Shown here one piece after another: positions 23,133 to 38,631 of a stretch of 64,000 bases of DNA; position 1 is the stretch's first letter, and every line of letters begins with the position of its first letter. The notes under the pieces are model-generated. The model saw only the letters and a program-made list of their open reading frames with translations. It was not told the DNA's origin and did not search any database. The translations under genes and the position numbers were made by a program. Origin of the DNA: an uncultured Tenacibaculum sp. (GTDB lineage Bacteria; Bacteroidota; Bacteroidia; Flavobacteriales; Flavobacteriaceae). Location of the stretch: assembly GCF_947494125.1 (NCBI RefSeq), contig NZ_CANLTU010000014.1, positions 2,177 through 66,176 of the forward strand. The letters are read 5' to 3'.

Positions 23133-23142
23133 TTTTCATGTA

Positions 23143-23262
23143 TTTAATTCTATTTTAATATGATATATCCCGAATTAACTTTGAAAGTTATCGGTATAAC
23201 AACATGTAATTCTTGTGTAGACAAGAATTATAAACTGTTAAAATTTAAAATGTAGAATTAAA
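23143..23262 (-). promoter_or_regulatory. Predicted multi-stem RNA structure sequestering the czcA translation-initiation region
   Basis: 23253-23262 is complementary to 23143-23152, and 23245-23250 to 23153-23158. The enclosed hairpins are 23207-23230 (10 bp) and 23170-23194. Confidence 0.6.
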
Positions 23263-23599
23263 CCCGTGGAGGCTGAAAAAGTTCATCTAAAAAGTTAGAT
23301 GCATTTAAATGTTTACGAAAAAGTATTTTCTTTTTTACTTGTAATGGTTTTACAAATAAATAATTAAATTCTTTTGTAATAATAGCATTAGATATACCAA
23401 GAGAAATACAGTGATGATGATGCTCTTTACTTTTCTCTTCTTCTGTATCATTTTCATGATGAGAATCATGATGTGTACTATCTATTACATCAATATGTGC
23501 CTCAGTTAAATCGTCTTCAAAAATAATAGCATCCGCATGTGCTTGTACTGGTGGTACAAACAATAAAAGCGTTAATATTATGATACTAATATTTTTCAA
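23258..23599 (-). CDS. Small His-rich leader ORF (DUF6660/DUF2946-like) ending LFQPPRV; candidate arrest peptide
   Basis: 113 aa, TTG start, signal peptide (AHA|D), HHDSHH...HHHHC cluster, C-terminal QPP; -7 element TAGCTTTG at 23629-23622. Confidence 0.75.
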   Translation of the reverse strand: MKNISIIILTLLLFVPPVQAHADAIIFEDDLTEAHIDVIDSTHHDSHHENDTEEEKSKEHHHHCISLGISNAIITKEFNYLFVKPLQVKKKILFRKHLNASNFLDELFQPPRV

Positions 23600-23696
23600 A
23601 TCAATCTTATAAGATTATATGCAAAGCTATTAAAAAAAAATAATATTTTCTTTTTTTAACTGCTTTTAATAAATTGAAATACGTCTATATATAGAA

Positions 23697-23725
23697 CAAC
23701 CTGTATTAAAAAATAATACAGGCTG
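23697..23725 (-). terminator. Probable terminator of the TonB receptor gene
   Basis: cctgtatta/taatacagg stem 25 nt past the stop codon, with a weak U-tract. Confidence 0.55.
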
Positions 23726-23750
23726 CTGTAATAATTATAAATTACTCTTT

Positions 23751-26141
23751 TTAATTTCTATTACTTCTTTTTGCATTTCTATTTTTATCAGATGGTTTTT
23801 GGTTAAACTTATATACAAAACTCAATGAAAATCTTTGTGCATTTCTACTTCTATCTTGATAGATTGAAAAATTATCGCCTGTAATTTGTTCTCTTGACCT
23901 TCTTGTATCAAGTACATTGTAAATATTAAAGATTAAACTTCCTTTATTATTGAACAAACTTTTTTGTAATCCAAAATTTAAATTGGTTATAGGTTTTGTC
24001 TTTGTTTGTGCATTACTTTCTTCTCCTTGATGAAAAATTCTTGTTTGAAGCCGTATGGTTTTAGTTGGTCTAATATTCATTGTGAAATTTGTAAACCAAG
24101 TATTGTTTGAAAAATCTGCAACTTTATTATTAAGTATTCCTTTTTGTTTAAAAGCGTACATATTAAAATCTCCCGAAAACCTTAACCATTTTAATGGATT
24201 GTATGACGCAGATAACTCAGCTCCATATCGCTTTTCATTATCTAAGTTTATAGGTGATTGAATAAAAATGCCTTCATTATTTTGTTTTGTTTCATATTGA
24301 AATACATCATTGGTACCTGAATAATAAATAGAAGGATTTAATCTAAATTTATTTCCTCTGTAAATAAGAGATAATTCAATAGCATCTGTATATGATGGAT
24401 TTAATGCTGGATTTCCTGTAAATCTAGATGTAAAATCTTTTAATTGAAAAAAAGGATTTAATTGCCATAATGATGGTCGACTAATACGTTTACTATAATT
24501 TATTTGTCCACTAAAGTTTTCTTTAAACTCATATCCTAATGTAGCTGATGGAAATAAATTTGTATAATTATTTTTTAAGTTTAATGTTGTTTCTGATGCT
24601 TGTATATCAATACTTGTATTTTCTAATCTTAATCCTACTTGGTAACTAATTTTTCCCTTTTTAGAATTTAATTGTGCATAACCCGACATTATTTTTTCTT
24701 TATAATTTAATTGATTATTTATATTATCAATTACCTCAAACTGTCCATTAATTAATTCTTCAGCTAAGAATTCATTTGTTATTTTTCTATTTTCAAACTT
24801 TGCTCCTATTTCAAAATTAGATTGTTTATTTATTGGTGTTTTAAAATCTGTTTGAATTACAATATCATCTGTACTTCCCTTTCCTTTTGTTTGAATGGTT
24901 GTTTGAGCAATAGATGTTGTAGGAAATTTTTCATCCGTTTGTAAATGCCAATCTTTTTCACTGTTCCAAAAATCATATTGAAAATCTATTGTTAATTTCT
25001 GACCTTTTTTAGCAAATGTTTTCGTGTAATTTGCTTCTAATTGGTTATAATCTCTTTCTTCTTTAGAATTACCTATAGTTTGTAACGATTGTGATAAAAC
25101 TCCTGAGTTAGAAAAATCATAAAATAAATTTGTTACATCTGTATCTTCTGTTTCATTTCTATAATAAGCTACTGTAATTGTATTTTTATCATTTATATAA
25201 TAATCTGTACCAAAATAAAATAGTTGTCCATCATCATGTCTATCTTCATCTTCTCTTTGATTTAAAAAAGTTGTGATATTATTTTCTGTAGTTGTTTGTT
25301 GTTTAAAATATTCTCCTTCATAATCTGTATATCTAATTCCTATGTTGGTGAAAAAATTAAATTTATTTGCTTTATAATTTAAATTTCCAATAGCTCTAAA
25401 ATCATCTGGAACACCTGATACTAAACGTACTTGACCATTTAACCCTGTTTTTCTATTCTTTTTAAGTATTATGTTAATAATACCTGCTGAACCTGAAGCA
25501 TCATATTTTGCTGATGGATTTGTAATAACCTCTATACTTTCAATAACATCTGCGGATAATTGTTCTAATGCTTGCGATTGTGTTAATGCTGAACGTCTTC
25601 CGTTTATCATTACTTGTACATTAGCGTTTCCACGTAAACTTACCGTTCCTGTAGGGCTGACATTTACTGATGGCACATTACTTAATACATCTGTTGCTGA
25701 ACCACTTTGTGAAGTAATATCTTTACCAACTCTGAACACTTTCTTTCCCAATTTTAAAGAGACTTCTGATGTTTCTGCCTTTACCACTATTTCATCAAGT
25801 GTTTTTGTATTCTCTTTTAATATTATGCTACCTAAACTTACAATTCTTTGTTCTTTAGTTATTTTAATTTTTCTTTCAATGGTTTCAAAACCTATATATT
25901 GAATTTCTAAGTTATAATCTCCTATAAGTATCTTAGAAAAAGTAAATAATCCTTCTTCATCGGTAACAACACCTTCTAAAATTTGTTTAGAAGCGTCTTT
26001 TAAAACAACTGTTGCATACGGTAATGTTTCTTTTGAACTATCTACAATTTTACCTGAAATTTTTCCATTACTAGATTGTTTCTGTGCCAATACTGAAATA
26101 CTAAAAAGCAAACAGATTAATAGGTTTATAAATGTTTTCAT
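23751..26141 (-). CDS. TonB-dependent receptor / outer-membrane beta-barrel protein with N-terminal CarboxypepD_reg-like domain
   Basis: GKISGKIVD...LPYATV, plug motif IESIEVITNPSAKYDASGSAGIINIILKK and barrel strands. Confidence 0.88.
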   Translation of the reverse strand: MKTFINLLICLLFSISVLAQKQSSNGKISGKIVDSSKETLPYATVVLKDASKQILEGVVTDEEGLFTFSKILIGDYNLEIQYIGFETIERKIKITKEQRIVSLGSIILKENTKTLDEIVVKAETSEVSLKLGKKVFRVGKDITSQSGSATDVLSNVPSVNVSPTGTVSLRGNANVQVMINGRRSALTQSQALEQLSADVIESIEVITNPSAKYDASGSAGIINIILKKNRKTGLNGQVRLVSGVPDDFRAIGNLNYKANKFNFFTNIGIRYTDYEGEYFKQQTTTENNITTFLNQREDEDRHDDGQLFYFGTDYYINDKNTITVAYYRNETEDTDVTNLFYDFSNSGVLSQSLQTIGNSKEERDYNQLEANYTKTFAKKGQKLTIDFQYDFWNSEKDWHLQTDEKFPTTSIAQTTIQTKGKGSTDDIVIQTDFKTPINKQSNFEIGAKFENRKITNEFLAEELINGQFEVIDNINNQLNYKEKIMSGYAQLNSKKGKISYQVGLRLENTSIDIQASETTLNLKNNYTNLFPSATLGYEFKENFSGQINYSKRISRPSLWQLNPFFQLKDFTSRFTGNPALNPSYTDAIELSLIYRGNKFRLNPSIYYSGTNDVFQYETKQNNEGIFIQSPINLDNEKRYGAELSASYNPLKWLRFSGDFNMYAFKQKGILNNKVADFSNNTWFTNFTMNIRPTKTIRLQTRIFHQGEESNAQTKTKPITNLNFGLQKSLFNNKGSLIFNIYNVLDTRRSREQITGDNFSIYQDRSRNAQRFSLSFVYKFNQKPSDKNRNAKRSNRN

Positions 26142-26204
26142 ATTTTTTGAGTTTTAATTTTCATCAAAAATCAACACAAAATCGTATTCTTATATTTAAA
26201 ATTA

Positions 26205-26239
26205 TGTAAACTGCTCTAACCATTTGTAAACTGCTCTAA
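26205..26239. promoter_or_regulatory. 15-bp perfect direct repeat (TGTAAACTGCTCTAA x2, 20-bp period); putative LytTR binding site
   Basis: Copies at 26205-26219 and 26225-26239, between the divergent TonB receptor and LytS/LytTR genes. Confidence 0.7.
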
Positions 26240-26284
26240 AAACACTTTTATTTCATTTACTTTTACCATAATAAAATAGTATTC

Positions 26285-27985
26285 ATGAATAAAATACTTT
26301 ACATATCTTTTATACTACTACTTGTTTCATGTAAAAATGAAATAAAACGAGACAAGGCTTTTCTTAAAATTCACGAAAATAGCTCCAAAACATTGTACAA
26401 AACTGGAGACAACTCTTCTTGGGCTTTAAAGGATTTTAATGATAGTAATTGGAGTATAAAGAAGACTATTCCTGAAGGAGATAGTATTTTTTGGGCTAGA
26501 AAAATACTTAAAACAGTTAAAGCTCCAGATTCATTACAAAAAACGGGTTTAAACATACATACTTTTGGAGCTTATGAAGTATTTTGGGATGGTGTCTTAA
26601 TAGGACGAAATGGACAGCCTGGAAATGAATTTAACAATAAAAAAACAGGTGGAACAACGGAAACCTTTCTAATCCCAAATAACTTACTTAATGCTGGAAA
26701 TCATACTATTGCCTTAAGAATGTCTCAATTATATGAAAAGGAATCACCACGTGGAATTTACATATCTGTATATAATTATAAAGAACTAATTACTAATAAA
26801 TTAAAAGATACCATCTACATAAATATTTTAGCGGGAGCTTTTTTACTTGCAACTATTTACTATTTCTTTTTATATATAAATGATAGAAAACAATATACAA
26901 TGTTGTTATTTAGTTTGTCTAGTTTTTTATTTTTCCTCTTAATTATTTTAGAGTATATAAAATTTTACATCCCTATTCATTATTCTGATTTTATCTTACG
27001 TTTAAAGGCTATTGGTATATTAACTTTACTCATATCGTTTTTAGTTCCCTATTATTTCGCTGTACAGTTTTCTTTTGTTTATCGTAAATGGTTTTTCTTA
27101 GCTTATGCCATATTCCAAATTTGGATCTATAATTTTTATTCACATTCATTCGATTATACAGCCTTATATTTAGCCCAAATGATGTGGTTATCTTCTACTT
27201 TAATTATATGCTATGCTATATACAAAAAACAAAAAGCTGCTATAGTGGTACTAATTGGACTATTACTCAGTTTTACTGTATATAAAATCTCCATTTACGA
27301 CGTTAGTTTGTTTGTAAGTTTTGGTATTATTTCTTTGTGTATGTTCTACTTATTATCTGTAAAATTAAAAGAGCAAAGATTAGCTTTTGAGCATTCTATA
27401 GCTGAATCTACAAGATTAAAATATGAGTTATTAAAAAAGAAAATACAACCTCATTTTTTAATGAACACCTTAACTTCTTTGATTGATTGGGTTGAAGAAG
27501 CTCCAGATAAAGGAGTAGAATTTATTGAAGCTTTAGCTGATGAGTTTGATTTATTAAATCAAGTAGAAAATGAAACATTAATTCCTATCTCTCAAGAAAT
27601 AAAACTTTGTAAGAGTCACTTAAACATTATGAAATACAGAAAGGAGATTGATTACGTTTGGGAAGATGAAGGTGTTTTAAATGATGATTCTCAGAAGATT
27701 CCGCCAGCAGTTATTCATACTCTATTAGAAAATAGTATTACACATTGTTTGCCTCTTAAAAATAACTCAATACGTTTTAAATTAGTTGTAAAAACCAATG
27801 AACAACAACAAAGCTACACCTTTATTACTTTTGCTAAAGTTAGGAATTTACAAAAAGAAAGAGCTGACGGAACTGGTTTTAAATATATAAAAGCTCGATT
27901 AACCGAAAGTTATAAAAACCGTTGGCATTTTAGTTCAGAATCGACAAAAGATGGATGGAAGAATGTAATTACAATTTTAAATTAG
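26285..27985 (+). CDS. LytS/YehU-family sensor histidine kinase with periplasmic jelly-roll domain and multiple TM helices
   Basis: IQPHFLMNTL H-box, EIKLCKSHLNIMKYR and LLENSITH motifs; multiple TM segments; N-terminal LVSC lipobox-like signal. Confidence 0.88.
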   Translation: MNKILYISFILLLVSCKNEIKRDKAFLKIHENSSKTLYKTGDNSSWALKDFNDSNWSIKKTIPEGDSIFWARKILKTVKAPDSLQKTGLNIHTFGAYEVFWDGVLIGRNGQPGNEFNNKKTGGTTETFLIPNNLLNAGNHTIALRMSQLYEKESPRGIYISVYNYKELITNKLKDTIYINILAGAFLLATIYYFFLYINDRKQYTMLLFSLSSFLFFLLIILEYIKFYIPIHYSDFILRLKAIGILTLLISFLVPYYFAVQFSFVYRKWFFLAYAIFQIWIYNFYSHSFDYTALYLAQMMWLSSTLIICYAIYKKQKAAIVVLIGLLLSFTVYKISIYDVSLFVSFGIISLCMFYLLSVKLKEQRLAFEHSIAESTRLKYELLKKKIQPHFLMNTLTSLIDWVEEAPDKGVEFIEALADEFDLLNQVENETLIPISQEIKLCKSHLNIMKYRKEIDYVWEDEGVLNDDSQKIPPAVIHTLLENSITHCLPLKNNSIRFKLVVKTNEQQQSYTFITFAKVRNLQKERADGTGFKYIKARLTESYKNRWHFSSESTKDGWKNVITILN

Positions 27986-27988
27986 CCT

Positions 27989-28687
27989 ATGAAAATTTTA
28001 ATTATTGAAGATGAAGCTCGCATCGCTAAAAGAATTGAACGTATGACTAAAGAATTCTTTTTAAACACACTTCAAGAATTAACCTGTGTACATTCTTTGG
28101 CTGAAGGCATTGAATATATTCAAAATAACAAACTAGACTTATTATTACTAGATTTAAACCTTAATGGTGAAAGTGGTTTTGAGGTTTTACAAAACAGTGT
28201 TTCTGAAGCTTTTCACACTATTATTATATCTGCAAATAAACATCAAGCTTTAACAGCCTTTGAGCATGGTGTTTTAGATTTTGTTCCTAAACCTTTTAAT
28301 AAAAACAGATTAGAACAAGCTTTCAATAGAATTATAAAAAAAGAAGAAGTTACTACTGAAAACTTGCAATATTTAGCTATTAAAAAACGTACAGGAGTTC
28401 AATTAATAGATATCAAAAATGTAAGATATATTAAAGGAGCTGGTGTATATACTGAAGTTTTCTTGACCAACGAACAAAAAGAATTACACGATAAATCTTT
28501 AGAAAAACTTTCTCAATTATTACCTGAATCTTTTCAGCGTATCCATAAATCTTATTTAGTAAAAATTACTGAAATTAAAGAAATCATTGTACAAACTGGA
28601 AGTAAATATTCCATTGAATTGAATAATGGAGAGATTTTACCTGTTGGTAGAACTAAATATAAAGAATTAAAAAAGTTATTTTTTTAA
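27989..28687 (+). CDS. LytTR family response regulator
   Basis: Receiver domain (IIEDE, LLDLNL, DFVPKP) and LytTR domain (FQRIHKSYLV, LPVGRTKY). Confidence 0.93.
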   Translation: MKILIIEDEARIAKRIERMTKEFFLNTLQELTCVHSLAEGIEYIQNNKLDLLLLDLNLNGESGFEVLQNSVSEAFHTIIISANKHQALTAFEHGVLDFVPKPFNKNRLEQAFNRIIKKEEVTTENLQYLAIKKRTGVQLIDIKNVRYIKGAGVYTEVFLTNEQKELHDKSLEKLSQLLPESFQRIHKSYLVKITEIKEIIVQTGSKYSIELNNGEILPVGRTKYKELKKLFF

Positions 28688-29065
28688 TCTGTCTTTTGCG
28701 TATTCTATTTTTGTTTTTCCATGAGCAACAGGAGTGCCTTCTTCATCTAAACTAACCATAATTATTTTATCAATAGCAATAATAGTTTTCTGCGTAATCT
28801 TATTACGTACTTCGCAATTTAAAGTAATAGATGATCTTCCAAACTTTACAACTTCTATACCTATTTCTATAATGTCTCCTTGCTTTGCAGAACTTACAAA
28901 GTCTATTTCCGACATAAACTTAGTTACTGTTTTTGGAATTTCTAATTGAATAATAGCATATAAAGCAACTTCTTCATCAATCCATTGTAATAAACGACCA
29001 CCAAACAAAGTTCCATTTGGATTTAAATCTTCTGGTTTTACCCATTTTCTAGTGTGAAATTTCAT
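28676..29065 (-). CDS. Acyl-CoA thioesterase (hotdog fold, YciA-like)
   Basis: DLNPNGTLFGGRLLQWIDEE motif. Confidence 0.9.
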   Translation of the reverse strand: MKFHTRKWVKPEDLNPNGTLFGGRLLQWIDEEVALYAIIQLEIPKTVTKFMSEIDFVSSAKQGDIIEIGIEVVKFGRSSITLNCEVRNKITQKTIIAIDKIIMVSLDEEGTPVAHGKTKIEYAKDRLKK

Positions 29066-29130
29066 ATATTTTATTTTACTACAAATTTCAATAATTAGGT
29101 TTAGTAAACCTATTAAACTCTATTTGTTTT

Positions 29131-31149
29131 TTATATTTTACCATAGTATTTTCTAATAAACCATTCTATAGATAACAATGCTATAATTAAAAATAAAGCC
29201 CATTTCCAATTAATTAAATTTTGCTTTTTGGTAATAGATTTCTGTGTTGTAAAATATGATTTATTTACTGATAATTCTTCCAACAAATCATTGACTTTAT
29301 TGGCATGAAACAATTTACCATTTGTCTTTAATGCTAAAGAATTAAGTTTTTTATAATTTGCATTTGTAAATTGCTGTTCAACTTGATAATCGGTAACTTT
29401 AAACTTTCCGTAACTACTTATATTTTGATTATTAACAGATACTTTATAAGTATAGTCTCCCGAAGATAAACCTTCAACAGATACTTGGTATGAATTACTT
29501 ACTAATGAAAAAGGAACTGTCTTTTTCTCTTTATTTTTTTCATTTGTAATCGTTAATTGCAATGCAGCTCTATTATCAAACTTAAAATTTTTATCAACAT
29601 AAAAAGCTGTAATAGAAACGGGTGTATTAGCAGGATACAATCGTTCTGCGTTAACCTCTAATCTTTTTCTTTTTTTGTTTGATGCTAAATATTGTACTAA
29701 ACTTCCTAAAAACGAGTCAAATTCTTCAAAAGACTGATCTTTTAAAAAACTTGCAGCTCTCCATTTCCAAATTCCTTCACCAAATAGAACTGCATATTTC
29801 TCCTCATTATTTTCAATGGTAGTTAATAAAGGCTGCTGCGTTTCAACTCCTGCATATTTTTGGTACAATAAATTTTGTGATTTGTTATTCAATATAACTT
29901 CTCCAAATTTATCTCTTAAAGGCGGAAATTCATTAAAACCTATATCTTTTTGTAAAAAAGTTAGAAAATTATCATTATAAATGGCAGCATACTCTTCTAT
30001 TTGATTAATTGCTTGTTTTCTAATTCCTAGTTCTTGAGAATTTATAAAGTTCCAATCAGTTTTAGTTCCAGAAACTAACAAATAATTTGAAGGTATTTTT
30101 TCTAAAATATTTTTAAAATAACTATTAGGCTGATACAATACAAAAAATTGATAATCAGCAATATTAATATTTTTATTACTTACTAAAGCAATATCAGCTT
30201 TACGTTGTTTATTACTTTCTATAGATTTTTTTATAGCACCTAAATCAGGATGTAAAAAAGAACTAACAATTAGCACTTTTGTTTGCTCATCTAGTATTTC
30301 AACTGAAAAGTTTTTATAATTATTTTTTATATTTTTTTCATTTTCAATTTTACGAATTGATGCCGAATAATATTGCAAGCCTTTTTCTCCTGATAATAGA
30401 TTCGTAGAAACTGTTTGTGATGGATTTGACGAAGAAAACTGTAATTTCTTTGAAAATACTCTTTTTCCTTTATGCGTAATTGTAAAAACAGAATTTACAT
30501 TTCCTTTTCCTTGGTAGTACAATAATACTTCTACAGGAAACTTATTTTTTATATAACTATACTTGTTAACATTTAACTGTGAAATTTCTAAATCTTGATA
30601 TCTTGTTGTATCTCCTATAACAATTGGATAAATGCTATTTTTAGTGTTTGTATACTCATAATCATCTCCATTTGTTTGATTACCATCACTAATTAAAATA
30701 GTAGCGTTATTCGCATCTTTATTTAATTGATTAACAGATTCAATCGCTTGTGAAATATCAGTTTGAGTTTCTAAAAAAGATAAACTATCAAGTACAGTAG
30801 TTGTTTTTCCAAAAGAAAATAATTGAACATTAAATTTATCTTGTACATTTTTGTTTTCTTCTATATCTTTTAAAATAGTAGTTATTGCAGTCTCTTCTTT
30901 AAAATATTTTACAGAAAGAGAATTATCTACTAAAACAGATAAAATTGGTTTCTTATTTTCAATTTCAATGGTTTCTATTTTTGGGTTAATTAGCAATAAA
31001 ATTAACAGAAACAAGCTTAAAGCTTTTAAAAAGAATAGTAAAACGTGAATTTTAGGTGTTTTTTTCGTTTTATAAAAATATTGAAAAAAAGCAATAGTAA
31101 CACTTACTAAAATTGCTAAAACTATATATACGAGAGTTAATGATTCCAC
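29131..31149 (-). CDS. vWA-domain membrane protein
   Basis: N-terminal TM pair; LVDNSLS MIDAS-like motif, TDISQA and LISDGNQT; C-terminal LLSIEWFIRK TM. Confidence 0.8.
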   Translation of the reverse strand: MESLTLVYIVLAILVSVTIAFFQYFYKTKKTPKIHVLLFFLKALSLFLLILLLINPKIETIEIENKKPILSVLVDNSLSVKYFKEETAITTILKDIEENKNVQDKFNVQLFSFGKTTTVLDSLSFLETQTDISQAIESVNQLNKDANNATILISDGNQTNGDDYEYTNTKNSIYPIVIGDTTRYQDLEISQLNVNKYSYIKNKFPVEVLLYYQGKGNVNSVFTITHKGKRVFSKKLQFSSSNPSQTVSTNLLSGEKGLQYYSASIRKIENEKNIKNNYKNFSVEILDEQTKVLIVSSFLHPDLGAIKKSIESNKQRKADIALVSNKNINIADYQFFVLYQPNSYFKNILEKIPSNYLLVSGTKTDWNFINSQELGIRKQAINQIEEYAAIYNDNFLTFLQKDIGFNEFPPLRDKFGEVILNNKSQNLLYQKYAGVETQQPLLTTIENNEEKYAVLFGEGIWKWRAASFLKDQSFEEFDSFLGSLVQYLASNKKRKRLEVNAERLYPANTPVSITAFYVDKNFKFDNRAALQLTITNEKNKEKKTVPFSLVSNSYQVSVEGLSSGDYTYKVSVNNQNISSYGKFKVTDYQVEQQFTNANYKKLNSLALKTNGKLFHANKVNDLLEELSVNKSYFTTQKSITKKQNLINWKWALFLIIALLSIEWFIRKYYGKI

Positions 31150-31213
31150 AAAAATTATTTTAATCTGTGAATATAAAAATATCTATTCAATTAAATTAAT
31201 CTAATAACTTTTC

Positions 31214-31261
31214 ATTTATGATTTGGGTCATAAATTAATTAATGTTTGGCTACTAATTTTG
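31214..31261 (+). promoter_or_regulatory. Crp/Fnr-type box ATTTATGA-N6-TCATAAAT plus -7 element TAATTTTG
   Basis: Palindrome at 31214-31235; -7 element at 31254-31261; box centre 36.5 nt from the final G. Confidence 0.72.
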
Positions 31262-31279
31262 TAGTAAATATTATTAGGC

Positions 31280-31618
31280 ATGAGTACAACAAAACATTTA
31301 ACAGTAAGTAATTCAATAAATGCATCTTTAAACTTCAATTTAATAAGCATTATAAACAAAAAAATAGCGCAAGAAAAAGAAAACGCTATTGGTATTTCAG
31401 TTATTTTAATAATGATTGGTACTATGATAGCTTCCTTCTCAGCTGCATTAGCTGTACATGGAGAAGTAAATATCCTTCCTTTAGCATTTACTTGTATTTC
31501 TGCTATGGGAGCTAATGCAATAGCAATAAGTCAACGAGCATTTAAAACGGTAGCTTGGGCATTTATAATTAATATATTAGGGAATATTTTATTAATTATT
31601 TATCAACTTATACTTTAG
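31280..31618 (+). CDS. Small hypothetical membrane protein (about 3 TM)
   Basis: 112 aa ORF with three hydrophobic segments and its own promoter elements. Confidence 0.7.
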   Translation: MSTTKHLTVSNSINASLNFNLISIINKKIAQEKENAIGISVILIMIGTMIASFSAALAVHGEVNILPLAFTCISAMGANAIAISQRAFKTVAWAFIINILGNILLIIYQLIL

Positions 31619-32006
31619 GTTTAGCTTCAAACATTTTAAAAAAGAGCATGGAAGCAATATTTCGTGCTCTTTCTTTAGCTTCGTGTGCTTTGGTTCCTAT
31701 AAAAAGATTGTCAATAGTTTCAAACCATAATTGAAGCCACCTGCCAAAATGTTCTTGAGAAATACTATGGTTAAAATTGCTATCAAGATCTTTGTGAGCT
31801 TTCATAGGATTCCCTTTAAACTTACGAACAAAGAAAAGGTTAGTTTCCCAAAAATCGGTCAACTTTTGTAAATGACTCTCCCAAGTCTCATTAGGGATCG
31901 CTTTTAAAAATATATGGCCTATAAAATCATCTTCTTTAATTTTATCATAAAAAGTTGATACTAATAAATATACATCATCTCTATTTTCTATTTCTTTTCT
32001 ATTCAT
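31608..32006 (-). CDS. Group III (trHbP-like) truncated haemoglobin
   Basis: DDVYLLVSTFYDKI, HLQKLTDFWETNLF, H-ligand region and HFGRWLQLWFETIDNLF; ATG at 32006 (ORF track uses TTG at 32009). Confidence 0.88.
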   Translation of the reverse strand: MNRKEIENRDDVYLLVSTFYDKIKEDDFIGHIFLKAIPNETWESHLQKLTDFWETNLFFVRKFKGNPMKAHKDLDSNFNHSISQEHFGRWLQLWFETIDNLFIGTKAHEAKERARNIASMLFFKMFEAKPKV

Positions 32007-32030
32007 CAAAAACTATATATTAATAAGCCG

Positions 32031-32076
32031 CAAAAGTATATCTTTATGCTGTTGCAATTTATGACTTAAATCATAA
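32031..32076 (-). promoter_or_regulatory. Crp/Fnr-type box TTATGA-N6-TCATAA plus -7 element TACTTTTG for the haemoglobin gene
   Basis: Box at 32059-32076; -7 element at 32038-32031; same 36.5-nt spacing as the first box; box overlaps the first base of the Crp/Fnr ATG. Confidence 0.72.
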
Positions 32077-32672
32077 TGATACCTAAAGAACTTTTACTTA
32101 GCTACAACGCTCAATATAAAATCTACAAAAAAGGAGATATTATTTTCTCTGAAAATGAAACGGCTCATTACTATTTTCAAATTAGTAATGGGGCTGTTAA
32201 AATGAATAATTATAATGAAGATGGAAAAGAGTTTATTCAAGGTATATTTTACAAAGAACAAAGTTTTGGAGAACCTCCCCTATTTATAGATGTAAAATAT
32301 CCTGCAAATGCTGAAGCAATATCTGAATCTGAAATTTTAATAATTTCTAAAAAAGATTTATTTAAGTTATTGCAAGAAAACCCTGAAACTCATTTAAAAA
32401 TAACGCAAAGTTTAGCTAAACGTTTATATTACAAAGCAATTATAGCCTCAGAAATTTCTAGTCAAGAACCAGCTCATAGAGTTTTACGTTTTTTCGATTA
32501 TTTAAAAAACGATGTGTATAAAATAAAAGGTGATTTTACTTTTAAAGTAGAATATACCCGCCAACAAATTGCCGACACTTTAGGTTTACGAGTAGAAACA
32601 GTAATACGAGTTATTAAATTGTTAGAAAAGAGAGGAGCTCTTAAAATCTTAAAACGAAAAGTTTATCGTTAA
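32076..32672 (+). CDS. Crp/Fnr family transcriptional regulator (Cys-free, DNR/NnrR-like)
   Basis: cNMP-binding-like domain (SFGEPPLF) and HTH TRQQIADTLGLRVETVIR; contains no cysteine. Confidence 0.92.
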   Translation: MIPKELLLSYNAQYKIYKKGDIIFSENETAHYYFQISNGAVKMNNYNEDGKEFIQGIFYKEQSFGEPPLFIDVKYPANAEAISESEILIISKKDLFKLLQENPETHLKITQSLAKRLYYKAIIASEISSQEPAHRVLRFFDYLKNDVYKIKGDFTFKVEYTRQQIADTLGLRVETVIRVIKLLEKRGALKILKRKVYR

Positions 32673-32743
32673 ATTCCTTTCAGATATCCGCTAAATAAAA
32701 TAAGTATTTTCTATTTTTGTCCCTTACAACACAACAACAAAAA

Positions 32744-34087
32744 ATGAACTTAACACAATTAAATGCCATCTCTCCTATTGATGGTAGGTACCGTAATAAA
32801 GTTGCGGATTTAGCTAATTATTTTTCTGAAGAAGCCTTAATTAAATACAGAGTAAAAGTAGAAATAGAGTATTTTATTGCTTTATGTGAAATTCCTTTAC
32901 CTCAGTTAACTGACTTCAATAAAGATTTATATTCTAATTTACGTGAAATCTACACTTCTTTTTCATCTGACGATGCTCAGAAAATAAAAGATATCGAAGC
33001 AGTTACAAATCATGATGTAAAAGCTGTTGAATATTTTATTAAAGAAAAATTTGATAAACTAAGCTTGAATAAATATAAAGAGTTTATCCATTTCGGATTA
33101 ACATCTCAGGATATAAATAATACTGCCATTCCACTATCTATTAAAGATGCGATGAATGAAGTTTATTATCCAACATTAGATACTTTGGTATGTAAATTAG
33201 CAGATTTATCTGAAGAATGGGATCAAATACCAATGTTAGCTCGTACGCATGGGCAACCTGCCTCTCCTACTCGTTTAGGTAAAGAATTTTTTGTATTTGT
33301 AGAGCGTATTAACAATCAGGCAATACATATACAACACACACCACATGCAGCAAAATTTGGTGGTGCAACTGGTAATTTCAATGCACACAAAGTAGCATAC
33401 CCTGATATCGATTGGAAAAATTTTGGAACTCATTTCGTTGAAGAAATTTTAGGTTTACACCATTCATTTCCAACAACACAAATTGAGCATTATGATCATA
33501 TGGCTGCTTTATATGATGGTTTAAAACGTATAAATACAGTTTTAATTGATTTAGATCGTGATGTGTGGACCTATGTATCAAACGATTATTTTAAACAAAA
33601 AATTAAAAAAGGAGAAGTAGGATCTTCAGCAATGCCACATAAAGTTAACCCAATTGATTTTGAAAATTCAGAAGGTAATTTAGGTATTGCAAATGCTATT
33701 TTTGAACATTTATCAGCAAAATTACCTGTTTCAAGGTTGCAACGTGATTTAACAGACAGTACTGTTTTACGTAATGTAGGAGTTCCTTTTGGGCATACAT
33801 TAATTGGTTTTGCGTCAACTTTAAAAGGATTGAACAAGTTATTACTAAATGAAGCTAAGTTTGCTGAAGATTTAGAAAACAATTGGGCTGTAGTTGCTGA
33901 AGCAATTCAAACTATTTTACGTCGAGAAGCCTATCCAAATCCATATGAAGCATTAAAAGGCTTAACACGTACCAATGAAAAAATAACACAACAATCAATT
34001 GCTAACTTTATTGATACTTTAGAAGTTTCTTCTGAAATAAAAAATGAATTAAAAGCAATTACACCATCTAACTATACAGGAATTTAA
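32744..34087 (+). CDS. purB: Adenylosuccinate lyase (ATG at 32744 preferred; the TTG at 32717 overlaps the -7 element)
   Basis: AISPIDGRY, TNHDVKAVEY, RTHGQPA, GSSAMPHKVNPIDFEN and SRLQRDLTDS motifs. Confidence 0.96.
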   Translation: MNLTQLNAISPIDGRYRNKVADLANYFSEEALIKYRVKVEIEYFIALCEIPLPQLTDFNKDLYSNLREIYTSFSSDDAQKIKDIEAVTNHDVKAVEYFIKEKFDKLSLNKYKEFIHFGLTSQDINNTAIPLSIKDAMNEVYYPTLDTLVCKLADLSEEWDQIPMLARTHGQPASPTRLGKEFFVFVERINNQAIHIQHTPHAAKFGGATGNFNAHKVAYPDIDWKNFGTHFVEEILGLHHSFPTTQIEHYDHMAALYDGLKRINTVLIDLDRDVWTYVSNDYFKQKIKKGEVGSSAMPHKVNPIDFENSEGNLGIANAIFEHLSAKLPVSRLQRDLTDSTVLRNVGVPFGHTLIGFASTLKGLNKLLLNEAKFAEDLENNWAVVAEAIQTILRREAYPNPYEALKGLTRTNEKITQQSIANFIDTLEVSSEIKNELKAITPSNYTGI

Positions 34088-34091
34088 TTTT

Positions 34092-34664
34092 ATGAATATC
34101 ATTATTTTCGGACCTCCTCTTGCTGGAAAGGGTACACAGTCTAAGACAATAATTAATAACTTTGGTTTAACTCATCTTTCAACTGGAGATGTATTAAGAG
34201 CTGAAAAGTCTCAAAAAACTGACTTAGGTTTAAAAGCTTCCGAATATAGTAATAAAGGCTTATTAGTTCCTGATGAATTAGTAATGAAGATTCTTGAAAA
34301 AGTTTATAAAAATAGTGATAATAAAAAGAATTTTTTATTTGACGGATATCCTAGAAATACTAAGCAGGCAGAACACTTAATTAATGTCTTAGAAAAAGAT
34401 AATAATTCTATAGATTTTGTAATATTTTTAAAAGTACCTAAAGAAGTATTGTTAGAAAGAGCCAAAATAAGAGCTAAACAAGAGAACAGAAAAGATGATG
34501 CTGACCAAAATACGGTCTTAACTAGAATAGATGAGTTTATAACTCAAACAATACCTGCAATTGATTACATTAAAGGGAGAAACATTCCTACATTAGAAAT
34601 TGATGGTAATCAATCAATAGAAAATATTAGTCAAACTATTTATAAAAACTTAAAGTCGCTATAA
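34092..34664 (+). CDS. adk: Adenylate kinase (short LID type)
   Basis: GPPLAGKGTQ, HLSTGDVLR, LVPDE and FDGYPRN motifs. Confidence 0.95.
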   Translation: MNIIIFGPPLAGKGTQSKTIINNFGLTHLSTGDVLRAEKSQKTDLGLKASEYSNKGLLVPDELVMKILEKVYKNSDNKKNFLFDGYPRNTKQAEHLINVLEKDNNSIDFVIFLKVPKEVLLERAKIRAKQENRKDDADQNTVLTRIDEFITQTIPAIDYIKGRNIPTLEIDGNQSIENISQTIYKNLKSL

Positions 34665-34666
34665 CT

Positions 34667-35122
34667 ATGATTAAATCTGTTAATTTTTCATCTTCTATTA
34701 TAATTAGTTGTGGAATTATTCTTTTTCTTTTTGCTATTTTATTTTCCTCATGTACTCCAGAAAAAAAAGGAGACCCAACACGTTTTAAATACGGAACCTT
34801 TGAAATTCCTGCAGGCGATGGTTATGGAAAAACTATTATTATTAGAAAAGATAGCTTACAAATAGAAAAGTATACTAAAAAAGTAAGTATTTCAACTGAT
34901 AGTCTTGTTACTGAAAAAGAAAGTATACACATAGATACTTTATACATTAAGTGGAAAAATAACTTCGCTTACTATTTAAAAATGAAAAACCCAAAAACAG
35001 ATTTAGATAAAGACCCTATATTTGTTCAACTTACTAAAGTTACAGATAGCTCTTATAGCTTTACAGCAAGGATTGGATACTCAAATTTTAAACAAAAAGG
35101 AACCGTATATAAAGTAAAATAA
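34667..35122 (+). CDS. Hypothetical lipoprotein
   Basis: FSSC lipobox; beta-rich soluble domain; operonic spacing of 2-3 nt. Confidence 0.65.
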   Translation: MIKSVNFSSSIIISCGIILFLFAILFSSCTPEKKGDPTRFKYGTFEIPAGDGYGKTIIIRKDSLQIEKYTKKVSISTDSLVTEKESIHIDTLYIKWKNNFAYYLKMKNPKTDLDKDPIFVQLTKVTDSSYSFTARIGYSNFKQKGTVYKVK

Positions 35123-35125
35123 ACT

Positions 35126-35905
35126 ATGGAAATATTTTTACAACCCGATACTTGGGGTGCATTAGTAACCTTAACATTTTTAGAAATCGTTTTAGGTATT
35201 GATAATATTATATTTATATCAATTGCAGCTAATAAATTACCTGAAAAACTACAAAAAAAAGCTACCAATATAGGTTTAGTATTAGCAATGGTATTACGTA
35301 TTGCTTTACTTTTTGGTATTTCATTACTTATTGCAATGAATGCTCCTCTTTTTCATATAGATTTCTCTTGGTTTAAAGCAGGTTTTACTGGTCAAGCATT
35401 AATATTATTTGCTGGAGGTATATTTCTTCTTTATAAGAGTACCAAAGAAATCCATCATAAAGTAGAGGGTCATGAAGATGAAGATACAGATGGTAAACCT
35501 CAAAAGGGTTATACATTAACACAAGCTATAATTCAAATAACTTTAATTAATATTGTATTCTCATTCGACTCTATTTTAACTGCAGTAGGTATGACTAACG
35601 GTGTTGAAGGTGCAATGGTTATTATGATTGCTTCAGTTATTCTATCTATGATTATTATGATGTTATTTGCGAATCCAGTTGGTAAGTTTGTAAACAAACA
35701 CCCAACAATTCAAATGTTAGGATTATCATTCTTAATATTAATTGGATTCATGCTAATTGCTGAAAGTGCTCACTTATCACACGCTAAATTATTTGGTGAA
35801 GAAATAGGTGTTATACCAAAAGGATATTTATATTTTGCTATTACCTTTTCTTTAGGTGTAGAGATGTTAAATATGCGTATTAGAGGAAGTAAAAAAAACC
35901 ATTAA
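35126..35905 (+). CDS. TerC family integral membrane protein (Alx/MeeF-like)
   Basis: LEIVLGIDNIIF, FSFDSILTAVG and YLYFAITFS motifs. Confidence 0.92.
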   Translation: MEIFLQPDTWGALVTLTFLEIVLGIDNIIFISIAANKLPEKLQKKATNIGLVLAMVLRIALLFGISLLIAMNAPLFHIDFSWFKAGFTGQALILFAGGIFLLYKSTKEIHHKVEGHEDEDTDGKPQKGYTLTQAIIQITLINIVFSFDSILTAVGMTNGVEGAMVIMIASVILSMIIMMLFANPVGKFVNKHPTIQMLGLSFLILIGFMLIAESAHLSHAKLFGEEIGVIPKGYLYFAITFSLGVEMLNMRIRGSKKNH

Positions 35906-35928
35906 GAAAAATTTAAGATATTTAAAAC

Positions 35929-35969
35929 AATACCCGATAGTCGTAAAGGTTATCGGGTATTTATTTTTT
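35929..35969 (+). terminator. Intrinsic terminator of the purB-adk-lipoprotein-terC operon
   Basis: aatacccgata / tatcgggtatt stem followed by tatttttt. Confidence 0.85.
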
Positions 35970-35990
35970 AATACCTTTGCTTCTGAAATC

Positions 35991-36311
35991 ATGTTTCGCT
36001 TAAAAAAACATATAGCCCTTCTAAGTTTACTTGTGTTACTATTACCATCAGTAATACAAATAGCTCATAGTTTTGAAAATCATGAACATACCATTTGTTC
36101 ATCTATTGACGATCATCACTTTCATGAACAAGAATTAGATTGTTCTTTATTTCATTATCAACTTCAAGTTTTCTCGTATTCAACAGCTTCAAATTATGCT
36201 GTAATACCACAACATTTTTATAAAAAAGAATACACTTTTCTACCTCAAGTAGTTTCTGTTGTTTATTCCGATAAAAGAACCTCACGAGGACCTCCTTATT
36301 TTACTGTTTAA
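35991..36311 (+). CDS. Small His/Cys-rich leader ORF ending RGPP (DUF2946/CruR-like candidate arrest peptide)
   Basis: 106 aa; N-terminal TM/signal; HxxxxHEHxxC...HHFHE...C...H cluster; RGPP at 36285-36296; -7 element TACCTTTG at 35972-35979. Confidence 0.78.
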   Translation: MFRLKKHIALLSLLVLLLPSVIQIAHSFENHEHTICSSIDDHHFHEQELDCSLFHYQLQVFSYSTASNYAVIPQHFYKKEYTFLPQVVSVVYSDKRTSRGPPYFTV

Positions 36312-36363
36312 TCAAATTGTTATAAAAAAAAGAATAACAAACTTATTATTTCACAGTAAAATA
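36297..36363 (+). promoter_or_regulatory. Predicted hairpin sequestering the TonB receptor translation-initiation region
   Basis: 36297-36307 (tattttactgt) is the exact reverse complement of 36353-36363 (acagtaaaata; -17 to -7 of the ATG); inner stem 36317-36323/36334-36340. Confidence 0.65.
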
Positions 36364-36369
36364 CATTAA

Positions 36370-38631
36370 ATGAAAAAAATAGTATTCTTCCTATTGTTTA
36401 TAGGAACGTCGGTTATATACGCGCAAAATAATTTATCAGGAAAAATTACAGACATTAATAAATCACCTCTTTTAGGAGTTGAAGTATTCTCAAATCAATT
36501 ACATAAAGGAACAGTTTCTAATGATCAAGGAGACTATACTTTTAAAAACATTCCAAATGGAAAAGTTACTATTAACTTTACTTTTTTAGGATTTAAAACT
36601 GTTTCTAAAGAATTTATTTTTAACAATCAGAATATTACATTTGATTTGCAATTGGAAGAATCTGTTTTTAAAATAGATGAAATTATAATTTCTACACCTT
36701 TTAATAAATTACAATCTGAAAATGTAATGAAAGTAGAACGATTGTCTGCTAAAGCTATCCAAAAAACTGGAGCCACTACGTTATCTGAAGGAATTACAAA
36801 TATAGCTGGAGTTTCTCAAATTACAACTGGAGCTTCAATTGGTAAGCCAGTAATAAGAGGTTTAAGTGGTAATAGAGTATTAGTATACACGCAAGGTATT
36901 CGTTTAGAAAACCAGCAATTTGGAGGCGAACATGGGTTAGGAATAAGCGATGCAGGAATTGAAAGTATTGAAGTTATAAAAGGACCTGCTTCTTTATTAT
37001 ATGGTTCAGATGCTTTAGGAGGTGTTTTATATATTCAACCAGAAAAATTTGCTCCAGAAAACACTACTAAATTCAATGTAAATCAACGTTACTTTAGTAA
37101 TACAATAGGAAGCAATACTTCATTAGGGGTAAAATCGTCTCTTAAAAATTGGCAATTTTTAGCAAGAGGAACCTATGCTATTCATTCAGATTATAAAACT
37201 CCTAATCAAAGAGCAACCAATACTCGTTTTAAAGAAAAAGATTTAAAACTTGGTGTTGGTTTTCATGAAAAAAACTTCTCTTCTGAATTACGTTATAATT
37301 TTAATAATTCAAGACTTGGATTAACTGAAGGTATCGGTGAACAAACTAAAGAAACACATTTAGAAATTCCTTTTCAAGATATAGATAATCATATTATTAG
37401 TTTACACAATCATTTATTCTTCAAAAACTCAAAATTAGATATTGATTTAGGATATACTATAAACAATAGAAAAGAGTTTGAAGAGCATGAGGAACACGAA
37501 GAAGGTGAAACCGAAGAAGAACATGAAGAGCACGAAGAAGGTGAAGCAGCTTTAAGTATGAAGTTAAAAACATTTAGCTATAACACTAAATATCATTTTC
37601 CTAAAATGAATAAGTTTGAACTTTTAATTGGTACTCAAGGATTGCATCAAACAAATACTAATTTTGGCGAAGAATTATTAATACCTAATGCTAAAATTAA
37701 TGATTTTGGGGTATTTACTACTGCTAATTTTGAACTTAGTAATAATACTCGTTTACAAGGAGGTATACGTTTTGACAACCGATCTATTAAAACAGAAAGA
37801 CATGAAGTACAACATGAAAATGAAGTACATATTTTCAATACCATAGATAAATCATTTAATAGTTTTACTGCCTCATTAGGATTGAAAACTAAATTATTTG
37901 CTGTTTTAAATACACGTATTAATATAGCTAATGGTTTTAGGGCTCCTAATTTAGCAGAATTAACTTCTAATGGAGTTCATCATGGAACGAATCGTTTTGA
38001 AAAAGGAAATAATAATCTTGTTAACGAGAAAAATTTACAATTAGATATTTCATTTGATTATAATACTGAGCACTTTGAAATATTTGCCAATGGATTTTAT
38101 AATAAATTAAACAACTATATTTATTTATCACCAACAGGTGAAATTGAAGACGGTGCTCCAGTTTATACGTATTTACAAGAAGATGCTAAATTATATGGTG
38201 GTGAATTTGGTTTTCATTTACACCCACACCCATTAGATTGGTTACATATAGAAAGTAGTTTTGAAACAGTTATAGGTAAACAGGATAGTGGTAACTATTT
38301 ACCCTTAATACCAGCTAATGCATGGAAGAATACACTTAGAACAGAGTTTTCTATTAAAAAATGGTTGCAACATGGTTATACATCATTAAGTATGCACTCA
38401 TATTTTAAACAAAACAATGTTAGTCAATTTGAAACTACCACGCCTGCTTATAATTTGATAAACTTTGGTTTTGGAGGAGATATCATGATTAACAAATATA
38501 AGTTTACTACGTCTGTAGCTATAAATAACCTTTTTAATGAAAAATATATTAACCATTTATCTAGATTAAAATCAAATGGAATACTAAATCCTGGTAGAAA
38601 TATTGTTCTAGGTTTACAGTTTAATATATAG
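36370..38631 (+). CDS. TonB-dependent receptor with His/Glu-rich loops, probable divalent-metal (Zn/Ni/Co) importer
   Basis: Plug motifs KPVIRGLSGNRV and IEVIKGPASLLYGSDALGGV; EEHEEHEEGE x2, HEVQHENEVH and GVHHGT; C-terminal GRNIVLGLQFNI. Confidence 0.9.
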   Translation: MKKIVFFLLFIGTSVIYAQNNLSGKITDINKSPLLGVEVFSNQLHKGTVSNDQGDYTFKNIPNGKVTINFTFLGFKTVSKEFIFNNQNITFDLQLEESVFKIDEIIISTPFNKLQSENVMKVERLSAKAIQKTGATTLSEGITNIAGVSQITTGASIGKPVIRGLSGNRVLVYTQGIRLENQQFGGEHGLGISDAGIESIEVIKGPASLLYGSDALGGVLYIQPEKFAPENTTKFNVNQRYFSNTIGSNTSLGVKSSLKNWQFLARGTYAIHSDYKTPNQRATNTRFKEKDLKLGVGFHEKNFSSELRYNFNNSRLGLTEGIGEQTKETHLEIPFQDIDNHIISLHNHLFFKNSKLDIDLGYTINNRKEFEEHEEHEEGETEEEHEEHEEGEAALSMKLKTFSYNTKYHFPKMNKFELLIGTQGLHQTNTNFGEELLIPNAKINDFGVFTTANFELSNNTRLQGGIRFDNRSIKTERHEVQHENEVHIFNTIDKSFNSFTASLGLKTKLFAVLNTRINIANGFRAPNLAELTSNGVHHGTNRFEKGNNNLVNEKNLQLDISFDYNTEHFEIFANGFYNKLNNYIYLSPTGEIEDGAPVYTYLQEDAKLYGGEFGFHLHPHPLDWLHIESSFETVIGKQDSGNYLPLIPANAWKNTLRTEFSIKKWLQHGYTSLSMHSYFKQNNVSQFETTTPAYNLINFGFGGDIMINKYKFTTSVAINNLFNEKYINHLSRLKSNGILNPGRNIVLGLQFNI
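37480..37545 (+). repeat. Tandem coding repeat EEHEEHEEGE x2
   Basis: Two 30-nt near-identical units (37480-37509 and 37516-37545). Confidence 0.8.

Follow-up and report, generated by a model that had tools for sequence, protein, structure and literature searches.

Two small leader reading frames before metal-transporter genes of a Tenacibaculum genome as probable metal-sensing arrest peptides

The genome of Tenacibaculum examined here carries, within a stretch of 64,000 nucleotides (the window, to which all coordinates refer unless another contig is named), two small open reading frames (ORFs) that stand directly 5' of genes for metal transport. ORF1 precedes an efflux operon that starts with a CzcA-type pump, and ORF2 precedes a TonB-dependent receptor that resembles ZnuD. 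Both leader ORFs are genuine, conserved genes, and we consider it fairly probable that they are cis-acting, metal-sensing arrest-peptide leaders of the kind represented by CruR and CutF and are not primarily mature proteins. The sequence motifs, the fixed spacing between them, a covarying RNA helix, the operon contexts and the distribution of the two families are all directly observed and are described below. The features of locus 1 are:

23622-23629, minus strand: putative -7 promoter element (TAGCTTTG) of the Bacteroidetes type, a pattern match 22 nt 5' of the ORF1 TTG
23258-23599, minus strand: leader ORF1, 113 aa, TTG start, ending LFQPPRV-stop
23408-23539, minus strand: putative metal-sensor segment of ORF1, residues 21-64 (HxD..H..HH..HH..HHHHC), with invariant columns in alignment A2
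23267-23278, minus strand: FQPP codons of ORF1 (residues 108-111), putative arrest core, [FL][QH]PP family-wide
23245-23263, minus strand: arm 1 of locus 1, formed by the last sense codon, the UAA stop and the following bases; core GUUUAAUUCUA at 23253-23263
23208-23229, minus strand: inner 9-bp hairpin AAUUCUUGU-CUAC-ACAAGAAUU within the 125-nt spacer, with no U run after it
23142-23159, minus strand: arm 2 of locus 1, -27 to -10 of the czcA ATG, a putatively occluded initiation region; core UAGAAUUAAAU at 23142-23152 (-20 to -10)
18813-23132, minus strand: CzcA/CusA-family resistance-nodulation-division (RND) pump with a TolC-like OEP domain, 1439 aa (TIGR00914, 1202 bits; PF00873; PF02321)
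17574-18770, minus strand: HlyD_D23 membrane-fusion protein (CzcB) of the efflux operon
15494-17473, minus strand: P-type ATPase of the efflux operon
14623-15462, minus strand: SPFH/Band_7 protein of the efflux operon

The features of locus 2 are:

35929-35961, plus strand: intrinsic terminator of the upstream TerC-family gene, which isolates the ORF2 transcription unit
35972-35979, plus strand: -7 promoter element TACCTTTG (TAnnTTTG), 11 nt before the ORF2 ATG, giving a very short leader
35991-36311, plus strand: leader ORF2, 106 aa, ATG start, ending SRGPPYFTV-stop
36066-36143, plus strand: putative metal-sensor segment of ORF2, H26 to C51, with invariant columns; CxxC in some relatives, among them relatives from other genera
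36285-36296, plus strand: RGPP codons (R99-G-P-P102), putative arrest core
36297-36307, plus strand: arm 1 of locus 2 (UAUUUUACUGU, the YFTV codons)
36353-36363, plus strand: arm 2 of locus 2 (ACAGUAAAAUA), -17 to -7 of the receptor ATG
36370-38631, plus strand: TonB-dependent receptor, 753 aa, plug and barrel, ZnuD-like, with a His/Glu-rich loop (HEEHEEHEEGETEEEHEEHEEGE)

The ORF1 product begins with a signal peptide (..PPVQA/HAD) that is followed by a His-rich region (H21-H63), C64, a 43-residue linker and FQPP, with RV before the stop, so that its Pro-Pro pair (P110-P111) lies near the C-terminus. The ORF2 product has an N-terminal transmembrane (TM) or signal segment, the potential ligands H26, H31, H33, C36, H43, H45 and C51, a variable linker of 47 residues, and RGPP followed by YFTV-stop, again with the Pro-Pro (P101-P102) near the C-terminus. 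Signal peptides were judged by eye and by hydrophobicity only. A preliminary description of this DNA had seen no evident similarity between the two proteins, which is borne out by profile-profile comparison (hhalign probability 5.7%, with only the hydrophobic N-terminus aligned), and scans against Pfam and NCBIfam assigned no family to ORF1, to ORF2 or to the members of either family. AlphaFold2 gave mean confidence values (pLDDT, predicted local distance difference test) of 53.5 and 50.6 for the two leaders, the N-terminal helix being the only confident part; since the alignments are shallow, this is weak evidence that both proteins are largely unstructured.

Of 101 genomes of the genus, 26 contain the ORF1 family, for which 19 homologues were retrieved from databases and only 52 representative clusters exist among 1.84e9 proteins. 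H60-63, C64, Q109, P110 and P111 are invariant in an alignment of 20 sequences (A2), and most members end in [FL][QH]PP, a few reading EPP or KPP. Within Tenacibaculum, ORF1-type leaders always head metal-resistance operons, which encode either CzcA or a TonB-dependent receptor with a cation diffusion facilitator exporter (Cation_efflux plus ZT_dimer) and a Band_7 protein. The ORF2 family is far more widespread, with members in 92 of the 101 genus genomes and in 165 of 250 genera of Flavobacteriaceae, always 5' of a TonB receptor. In the members examined, from the genus and from 27 other genera, R[GA]PP lies 1-6 residues from the C-terminus, with a single exception that reads RGPT. Conservation in this family is centred on the ligand positions and on R-G/A-P-P: among 76 distinct members the majority-residue fraction is 0.32 over a 41-residue linker and 0.78 in the arrest segment. 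Neither RGPP nor RAPP occurs in the 2781 ORFs of at least 150 aa of the window's genome, a rarity of little weight, since this AT-rich genome has hardly any AGPP (0) or AAPP (1) either.

Between the putative sensor and the Pro-Pro pair, each family keeps a nearly constant distance. In the ORF1 family C64 and P110 are 46 residues apart at 18 of 26 loci, 44 at four and 47 at three, in line with the value given in the preliminary description. In the ORF2 family the distance from C51 to P101 is 50 residues in 29 of 41 members from the genus, 49 in eight and 48 in three, and outside the genus the corresponding Cys precedes the first Pro by 50 residues in 21 of 25 members, with an overall range of 46-51; the spacing is kept even where the linker sequences are unrelated. 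The preliminary description had taken H55 as the last ligand of ORF2 and had arrived at an identical spacing of 46. As H55 is not conserved and H75 lies nearer to the Pro-Pro, while the conserved anchor C51 gives 50, the numerical match is fortuitous. The claim behind it stands: each family has its own fixed ruler, slightly longer than the ribosomal exit tunnel.

At both loci the end of the leader is complementary to the region just 5' of the downstream start codon. At locus 1, where the spacer between ORF1 and the CzcA-OEP gene is 125 nt, GUUUAAUUCUA (23253-23263), made up of the final sense codon with the stop and five bases beyond it, pairs with UAGAAUUAAAU (23142-23152) in a duplex of -11.7 kcal/mol that none of 200 shuffles equalled; folding of the 201-nt region has a z score of -4.2, and the inner hairpin may bring the two arms together. 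At locus 2, where the spacer between ORF2 and the receptor gene is 58 nt, UAUUUUACUGU (36297-36307) pairs with ACAGUAAAAUA (36353-36363) at -11.2 kcal/mol. For the comparison across loci, the region from the first Pro codon to 15 nt past the stop was paired with positions -30 to +12 of the downstream ATG, and the duplex was compared with 200 dinucleotide shuffles, or with mononucleotide shuffles for the ORF2-family loci of other genera and for a third family described below. The natural duplex is better than shuffled ones at p<=0.05 in 18 of 26 ORF1-family loci and 15 of 30 ORF2-family loci, and in 12 of 26 ORF2-family loci of other genera; chance alone would account for about 1.3-1.5 loci. 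Swapping the partners between loci weakens the mean duplex from -10.3 to -5.5 kcal/mol in the ORF1 family and from -9.5 to -7.2 kcal/mol in the ORF2 family, and 600 adjacent same-strand ORF pairs of the genome have a mean of -5.55 kcal/mol, with 5% reaching -10. Related sequences are not independent, which affects the counts of loci and is mitigated by the inter-genus set and by the swap test.

The arms covary over more than 80 loci, species differing in sequence while complementarity is kept. Examples are GUUUAAUUCUA/UAGAAUUAAAU, UUUAAAUUAAUUAU/AUAAUUAAUUUAAA and GUAUAAUUCAGUU/AACUGAAUUAAUAC in the ORF1 family and UUUUACUGU/ACAGUAAAA, UUUUAUUGU/ACAAUAAAA and UUUGUAAUUUA/AAAUUACAAA in the ORF2 family. 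RNAalifold, applied to MAFFT-aligned mini-constructs, found eight pairs in the ORF2 family, two of them with compensatory changes (C-G/U-A and G-C/A-U). It predicted nothing for the ORF1-family mini-constructs because the alignment set arm 2 out of register; pair tables anchored on the stop codon were used instead, and these show compensatory alternation of C-G, U-A, A-U and G-C at +5 to +7, with the stop codon paired at 26 of 26 loci. Pairing is maintained over spacers of 31-513 nt. In both families arm 1 extends from +7/+9 to about +23 nt, with the 5' base of the first Pro codon as reference, and arm 2 occupies about -24/-22 to -8 relative to the ATG. In leaders with a longer C-terminal tail (QPPRNFKL, loci L018-L020) arm 1 shifts into the coding region and its distance to the Pro codons is kept. 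The toeprint of a ribosome lies at about +16, counted from the codon in its P site; with the first Pro codon there, the mRNA channel would accordingly enclose the 5' half of arm 1. The "anti-initiation arm" of the preliminary description is therefore real at both loci, by comparison with shuffles, swapped partners and genomic ORF pairs and by covariation; complementarity no more frequent than in shuffled AT-rich controls had been named beforehand as a refuting observation, and the pairing turned out to be more frequent.

Motifs of the TAGCTTTG type alone are not enriched in the window, which makes the promoter call at locus 1 weak; TAnnTTTG is found at the equivalent position in homologous loci of ORF1. 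Leaders of the ORF1 family and some of the ORF2 family start with TTG or GTG about 10-25 nt 3' of TAnnTTTG and thus have weak start codons on very short 5' leaders. The spacers contain no additional same-strand TAnnTTTG, so that an internal promoter is unsupported, and a scan of 14000-40000 with Rfam returned no match and hence no known riboswitch or leader RNA.

This anatomy has close published parallels. CruR of Bordetella pertussis (Bp2923, DUF2946) is the product of an exported upstream open reading frame (uORF) with RAPP three residues from its end; the RAPP is needed for expression of the downstream TonB-dependent transporter gene bfrG, copper sensed by a CXXC motif relieves the stall and thereby allows Rho termination, the 45 residues between CXXC and RAPP are conserved to within 1-2 residues, adding five residues breaks regulation, and the protein is reported to be unstructured (PMC9426467). 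CutF of Rhodobacter capsulatus has a signal peptide, a copper motif and a C-terminal Pro-rich motif (PMC9973294). Copper induces a Pro-Pro stall in CutF that melts a stem-loop before a detoxification gene, the opposite of the response of CruR, as pointed out in the CutF paper; a survey for CutF-like proteins, taken as those under 150 aa that have a signal peptide and a PP among their last 15 residues, collected 5,334 sequences, about 40% of which, on normalised counts, come from Bacteroidota; their neighbours include OEP, ACR_tran and TonB (PMC9973294; bioRxiv 10.1101/2025.02.05.636593). RAPP and especially RGPP have been found by experiment in other proteins to be robust, EF-P-refractory arrest cores (Fujiwara 2025, PMC12992588). 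They are depleted from proteomes (bias of 0.17 and 0.14, respectively, in Bacteroidota) and enriched near the C-termini of small secreted proteins 5' of TonB-dependent receptors, which in silico form a "TonB-related" uORF class of Gram-negative bacteria (PMC12992588). The characterised arrest peptides of the ApdA, ApdP and SecM type monitor Sec/YidC (PMC10951233; PMC12992588), whereas the putative sensor of the leaders described here is a metal-ligand cluster.

ORF2 resembles CruR in being the first, small gene of its operon, with an export signal and a TonB-dependent transporter downstream, in having a Cys-containing motif some 45-50 residues before an R-A/G-P-P that ends 3-4 residues from the stop, and in being predicted to be unstructured. 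Its one Cys at the sensor end is not part of a CXXC (DCS, C51, 47 residues before R99-GPP), although some relatives combine CxxC with RAPP, and the polarity expected from CruR, with metal shortening the stall and switching the importer off, would suit the receptor. ORF2 differs from CruR in coming from Bacteroidota and not from Proteobacteria, in its conserved RNA feature, which is occlusion of the start region and not a C-rich Rho site, in its ligands, which are mainly His (HxH..C..HxH..C), and in its ZnuD-like receptor; the last two differences make zinc likelier than copper. The DUF2946 model (PF11162) matches neither ORF1 nor ORF2, nor any of 16 ORF2-family members, and reaches E=0.23 with one of 20 ORF1-family members; two ORF1 relatives are labelled "DUF2946 domain-containing" in UniRef. 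As the anatomy matches the published class, ORF2 most likely belongs, by analogy, to the "TonB-related RGPP/RAPP uORF" class, with CruR as its functional analogue.

By the definition of CutF-like genes (Ozturk 2023: <150 aa, a signal peptide, PP in the last 15 residues and a same-strand gene <1000 nt downstream), ORF1 qualifies with 113 aa, a PP three residues from its end and the 125-nt spacer, and ORF2 with 106 aa, a PP five residues from its end and the 58-nt spacer, the signal peptides resting on inspection and hydrophobicity; at both loci the mRNA is also predicted to shield the downstream start by secondary structure. ORF1 shares with CutF its size, Sec signal peptide, metal motif and terminal Pro-Pro as well as its place at the head of metal-detoxification genes, and a metal that lengthens the stall is the logic that ORF1 would need. 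It differs in its motifs (HHHHC and FQPP, against CxxxC and PPP in CutF, and against the CXXC and RAPP of CruR), in its target, an RND/P-type ATPase operon instead of a multicopper oxidase, and in its helix, which would sequester an A-rich region with no Shine-Dalgarno sequence. The R-A/G-P-P of the arrest peptides, close to the C-terminal end of a small secreted protein, is present in ORF2, whereas ORF1 has [FL][QH]PP, without the Arg. On our reading ORF1 falls within the CutF-like group as operationally defined, although its core, FQPP, is a different one. The supplementary lists of the published surveys that were examined contain no Tenacibaculum entries. The preliminary description had proposed one architecture wired to opposite outputs, an idea for which the contrast between CruR and CutF is a direct precedent and which, having been published already, is not a new principle.

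In the mechanism that we favour, leader and transporter would be transcribed together from the promoter just upstream, and a ribosome on the leader would pause when its P site holds the first Pro codon, of RGPP in ORF2 and of FQPP in ORF1. The conserved His/Cys cluster, 46-50 residues back, would at that moment stand just outside the exit tunnel, and loading of the cluster with metal could alter the force on the nascent chain, or its conformation, and with it the length of the pause. The paused ribosome would keep the 5' half of the helix in its mRNA channel and leave the start region free; a long pause would then lead to translation of the transporter and a short one would not. The phylum does without Shine-Dalgarno sequences, and the stretch from -24 to -8 is the A-rich landing region for the ribosome. 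At the importer, metal, probably zinc, should shorten the pause, as copper does for CruR. A longer pause in the presence of metal, such as copper brings about in CutF, is expected for the CzcA-OEP/CzcB/P-type ATPase operon; this metal-induced polarity fits the consistent association of the ORF1 family with metal-resistance operons. Zinc as the metal of ORF2 is suggested by the ZnuD-like His/acidic loop of the receptor, which is also present in orthologues of other genera; as the resemblance to ZnuD is limited to this loop, and the ZnuD model NF038289 scores 148.7 bits, below its curated threshold of 950, the zinc specificity of the receptor is putative. The proposal in the preliminary description, that an exported metal-binding nascent peptide stalls at Pro-Pro and frees the downstream start, is thus supported in outline by the ruler, the motif, the covarying helix and the CruR and CutF precedents, while the stall itself is something that we infer.

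Several points weigh against this account. The stall, the metal, the compartment in which it would be sensed and the polarity are all steps that we infer; stalls at XPP are normally relieved by EF-P, and the stall at FQPP is putative. The duplexes are AU-rich, about one third to one half of the individual loci lie above p<=0.05, and in a minority (e.g. L031, L038, L089 and L090) the duplex is weak or absent. A terminating ribosome would also open the helix transiently, so that plain translational coupling is possible, leaders with signal peptides could act as mature periplasmic metal binders as well, and trans-acting regulators are encoded elsewhere in the genome. The strongest competing explanation is that the two products are ordinary mature accessory proteins, periplasmic or membrane-anchored and metal-binding (a metallochaperone, or a protein like CzcI), with the helix serving translational coupling and the Pro-Pro serving the mature protein. 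The signal peptide or TM segment combined with conserved His/Cys clusters, the conservation of both leaders as proteins, and the stop codon inside the helix at all 26 ORF1-family loci, where a terminating ribosome would open it, are in keeping with such a role. We nevertheless regard it as unlikely, given that the linker of the ORF2 family is fixed in length and free in sequence, that the structure models are unstructured and of low confidence, and that R[GA]PP, although arrest-prone and strongly avoided, is kept in all examined members but one (PMC12992588). Moreover, arm 1 tracks the Pro codons and not the stop where the C-terminal tail is longer (L018-L020), and the mature CutF and CruR proteins are undetectable or dispensable, cutF complementing only with its operon intact (PMC9973294, PMC9426467).

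A real stall might instead have a transcriptional output, the stalled ribosome blocking Rho or another form of attenuation in the spacer and the helix being secondary. This is the experimentally supported mechanism of the closest importer analogue, CruR-bfrG (PMC9426467), and some loci do have spacers of 100-500 nt; but the spacers are extremely AT-rich with few C, which makes a C-rich rut site unlikely, many are merely 31-60 nt long, and the only feature conserved over otherwise divergent spacers is the pairing of the start region, at fixed distances to the Pro codons and the ATG. We therefore give this explanation a low probability. Attenuation by an intrinsic terminator between leader and transporter was considered as well and rejected, no terminator-like site having been found there. 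Lowest of all we place the possibility that metal regulation is exerted wholly in trans by Fur/Zur-family, MerR/ZntR-type or ArsR-type regulators encoded elsewhere, the leaders having no sensing role. The genome does encode such proteins: a single Fur-family gene on contig C2 and, above the Pfam cut-off, four matches to MerR_1 and three to the ArsR-type HTH_5, besides one further HTH_5 match below the cut-off. In Riemerella, also of the Flavobacteriales, deletion of the MerR-type ZntR shifts the expression of TonB receptors and RND pumps (PMC11960050). Yet the window's contig carries none of these Fur, MerR or ArsR genes, inspection by eye of 50+ upstream regions of leader promoters revealed no conserved palindromic operator (no formal motif search was made), these promoters abutting upstream terminators or stop codons, and regulation in trans leaves the conserved ruler, arrest motif and helix unexplained. 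The absence of these regulators near the two loci had been noted correctly in the preliminary description; its further step to a transcription-factor-free system is not established, because trans-acting regulators are encoded elsewhere in the genome and the Riemerella ZntR provides a precedent for their action.

The favoured reading, that ORF1 and ORF2 are arrest-peptide leaders, receives some context from a scan of the genome, which selected ORFs of 60-160 aa on three features: a Pro-Pro among the final 10 residues, an N-terminus of hydrophobic character and four or more His or Cys. ORF1 and ORF2 rank first in it, with 12 and 11 His plus Cys. The scan also returned a third candidate outside the window (contig C1:77733-78101, minus strand), a protein of 122 aa with a TM segment and three Cys that ends in IFHPPTT, 88 nt before a gene whose product is a Met/His-rich outer-membrane protein of Phenol_MetA_deg-like type. 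The stop region of the candidate (UAGAUUUUACA) can be paired with UGUAAAAUUUA, which lies 5' of that gene's ATG. The family is present in 54 of the 101 genus genomes, always ends in [VI]FHPPxx and has its last Cys 65 residues before the Pro-Pro. The system had been called genome-wide in the preliminary description; three loci are all that this genome offers, the third with its own pairing. Proteins of the DUF6660 family (PF20365) in Tenacibaculum and other Flavobacteriales (L112-L118) look like another family of leader peptides, being about 105 aa long, with an N-terminal hydrophobic segment and an [LW][QH]PPxx end, and encoded 50-213 nt 5' of CzcA or TonB-receptor genes. They share with ORF1 the hydrophobic N-terminus, the type of ending and the genomic position, and differ from it by a Cys-rich PCxD..CSPFCxCxCC motif in place of the His-rich one; the DUF6660 model matches nothing in the window's genome and neither ORF1, ORF2 nor their relatives, and the literature searched makes no mention of DUF6660. 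Three leader families, those of ORF1, of DUF6660 and of the FHPP proteins, thus have in common an [FWL][QH]PP ending, alongside a fourth with R[GA]PP; as a C-terminal core across Bacteroidota leaders this ending is possibly new.

The two loci appear to add new, so far uncharacterised representatives to an established type of regulator. To our knowledge, metal sensing by nascent peptides has so far been shown experimentally only for copper and only in two proteobacteria. If our interpretation is correct, it would extend to Bacteroidota and probably to zinc, and to mRNAs devoid of Shine-Dalgarno sequences, in which the helix hides an A-rich landing region. The ORF2 family, present in about two thirds of the genera of Flavobacteriaceae, would then amount to a major layer of metal control that annotations of marine and fish-associated bacteria have missed, and the [FWL][QH]PP ending would supply DUF6660 with a function and might be a new arrest core motif. 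Such genes would be better annotated as regulatory leaders than as "hypothetical exported proteins". One may go further and speculate, tentatively and with more doubt than conviction, that Flavobacteriaceae rely for a large share of Zn/Cd/Cu homeostasis on nascent-peptide sensors from several unrelated families, which would have either the known R[GA]PP or an undescribed aromatic/aliphatic-[QH]-P-P core and be read out by a helix that hides an A-rich start lacking a Shine-Dalgarno sequence, the ORF2 family being the first zinc-responsive counterpart of CruR.

The neighbourhoods of the loci show some further variation. The TerC-family gene (35126-35905) is a conserved upstream neighbour of the ORF2 leader, and in several species (L042-L058) the leader starts within a few nucleotides of the TerC stop, with no terminator between them, so that TerC, leader and receptor may be co-transcribed there. 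At loci L085 and L099 and at the genus loci L033, L038, L039, L049 and L052, ORF2-type leaders precede a different subtype of TonB receptor with a Cys in its N-terminal sequence (..SQNC.Y..); the spacers are very short (31-47 nt) and the duplex is often weaker, and these leaders may represent a second regulatory variant. At locus 1, CzcA and the TolC-like OEP are joined in a single frame (18813-23132). An acyl-CoA thioesterase-like gene (28676-29065 in the window) lies directly 5' of the ORF1-type leader in other species; in the window the two are separated by an OMP_b-brl_3 outer-membrane protein gene (23751-26141) and by a His_kinase/LytTR pair (26285-28687) divergent from it. The window thus does encode regulators, this pair and a Crp/Fnr protein (32076-32672) among them.

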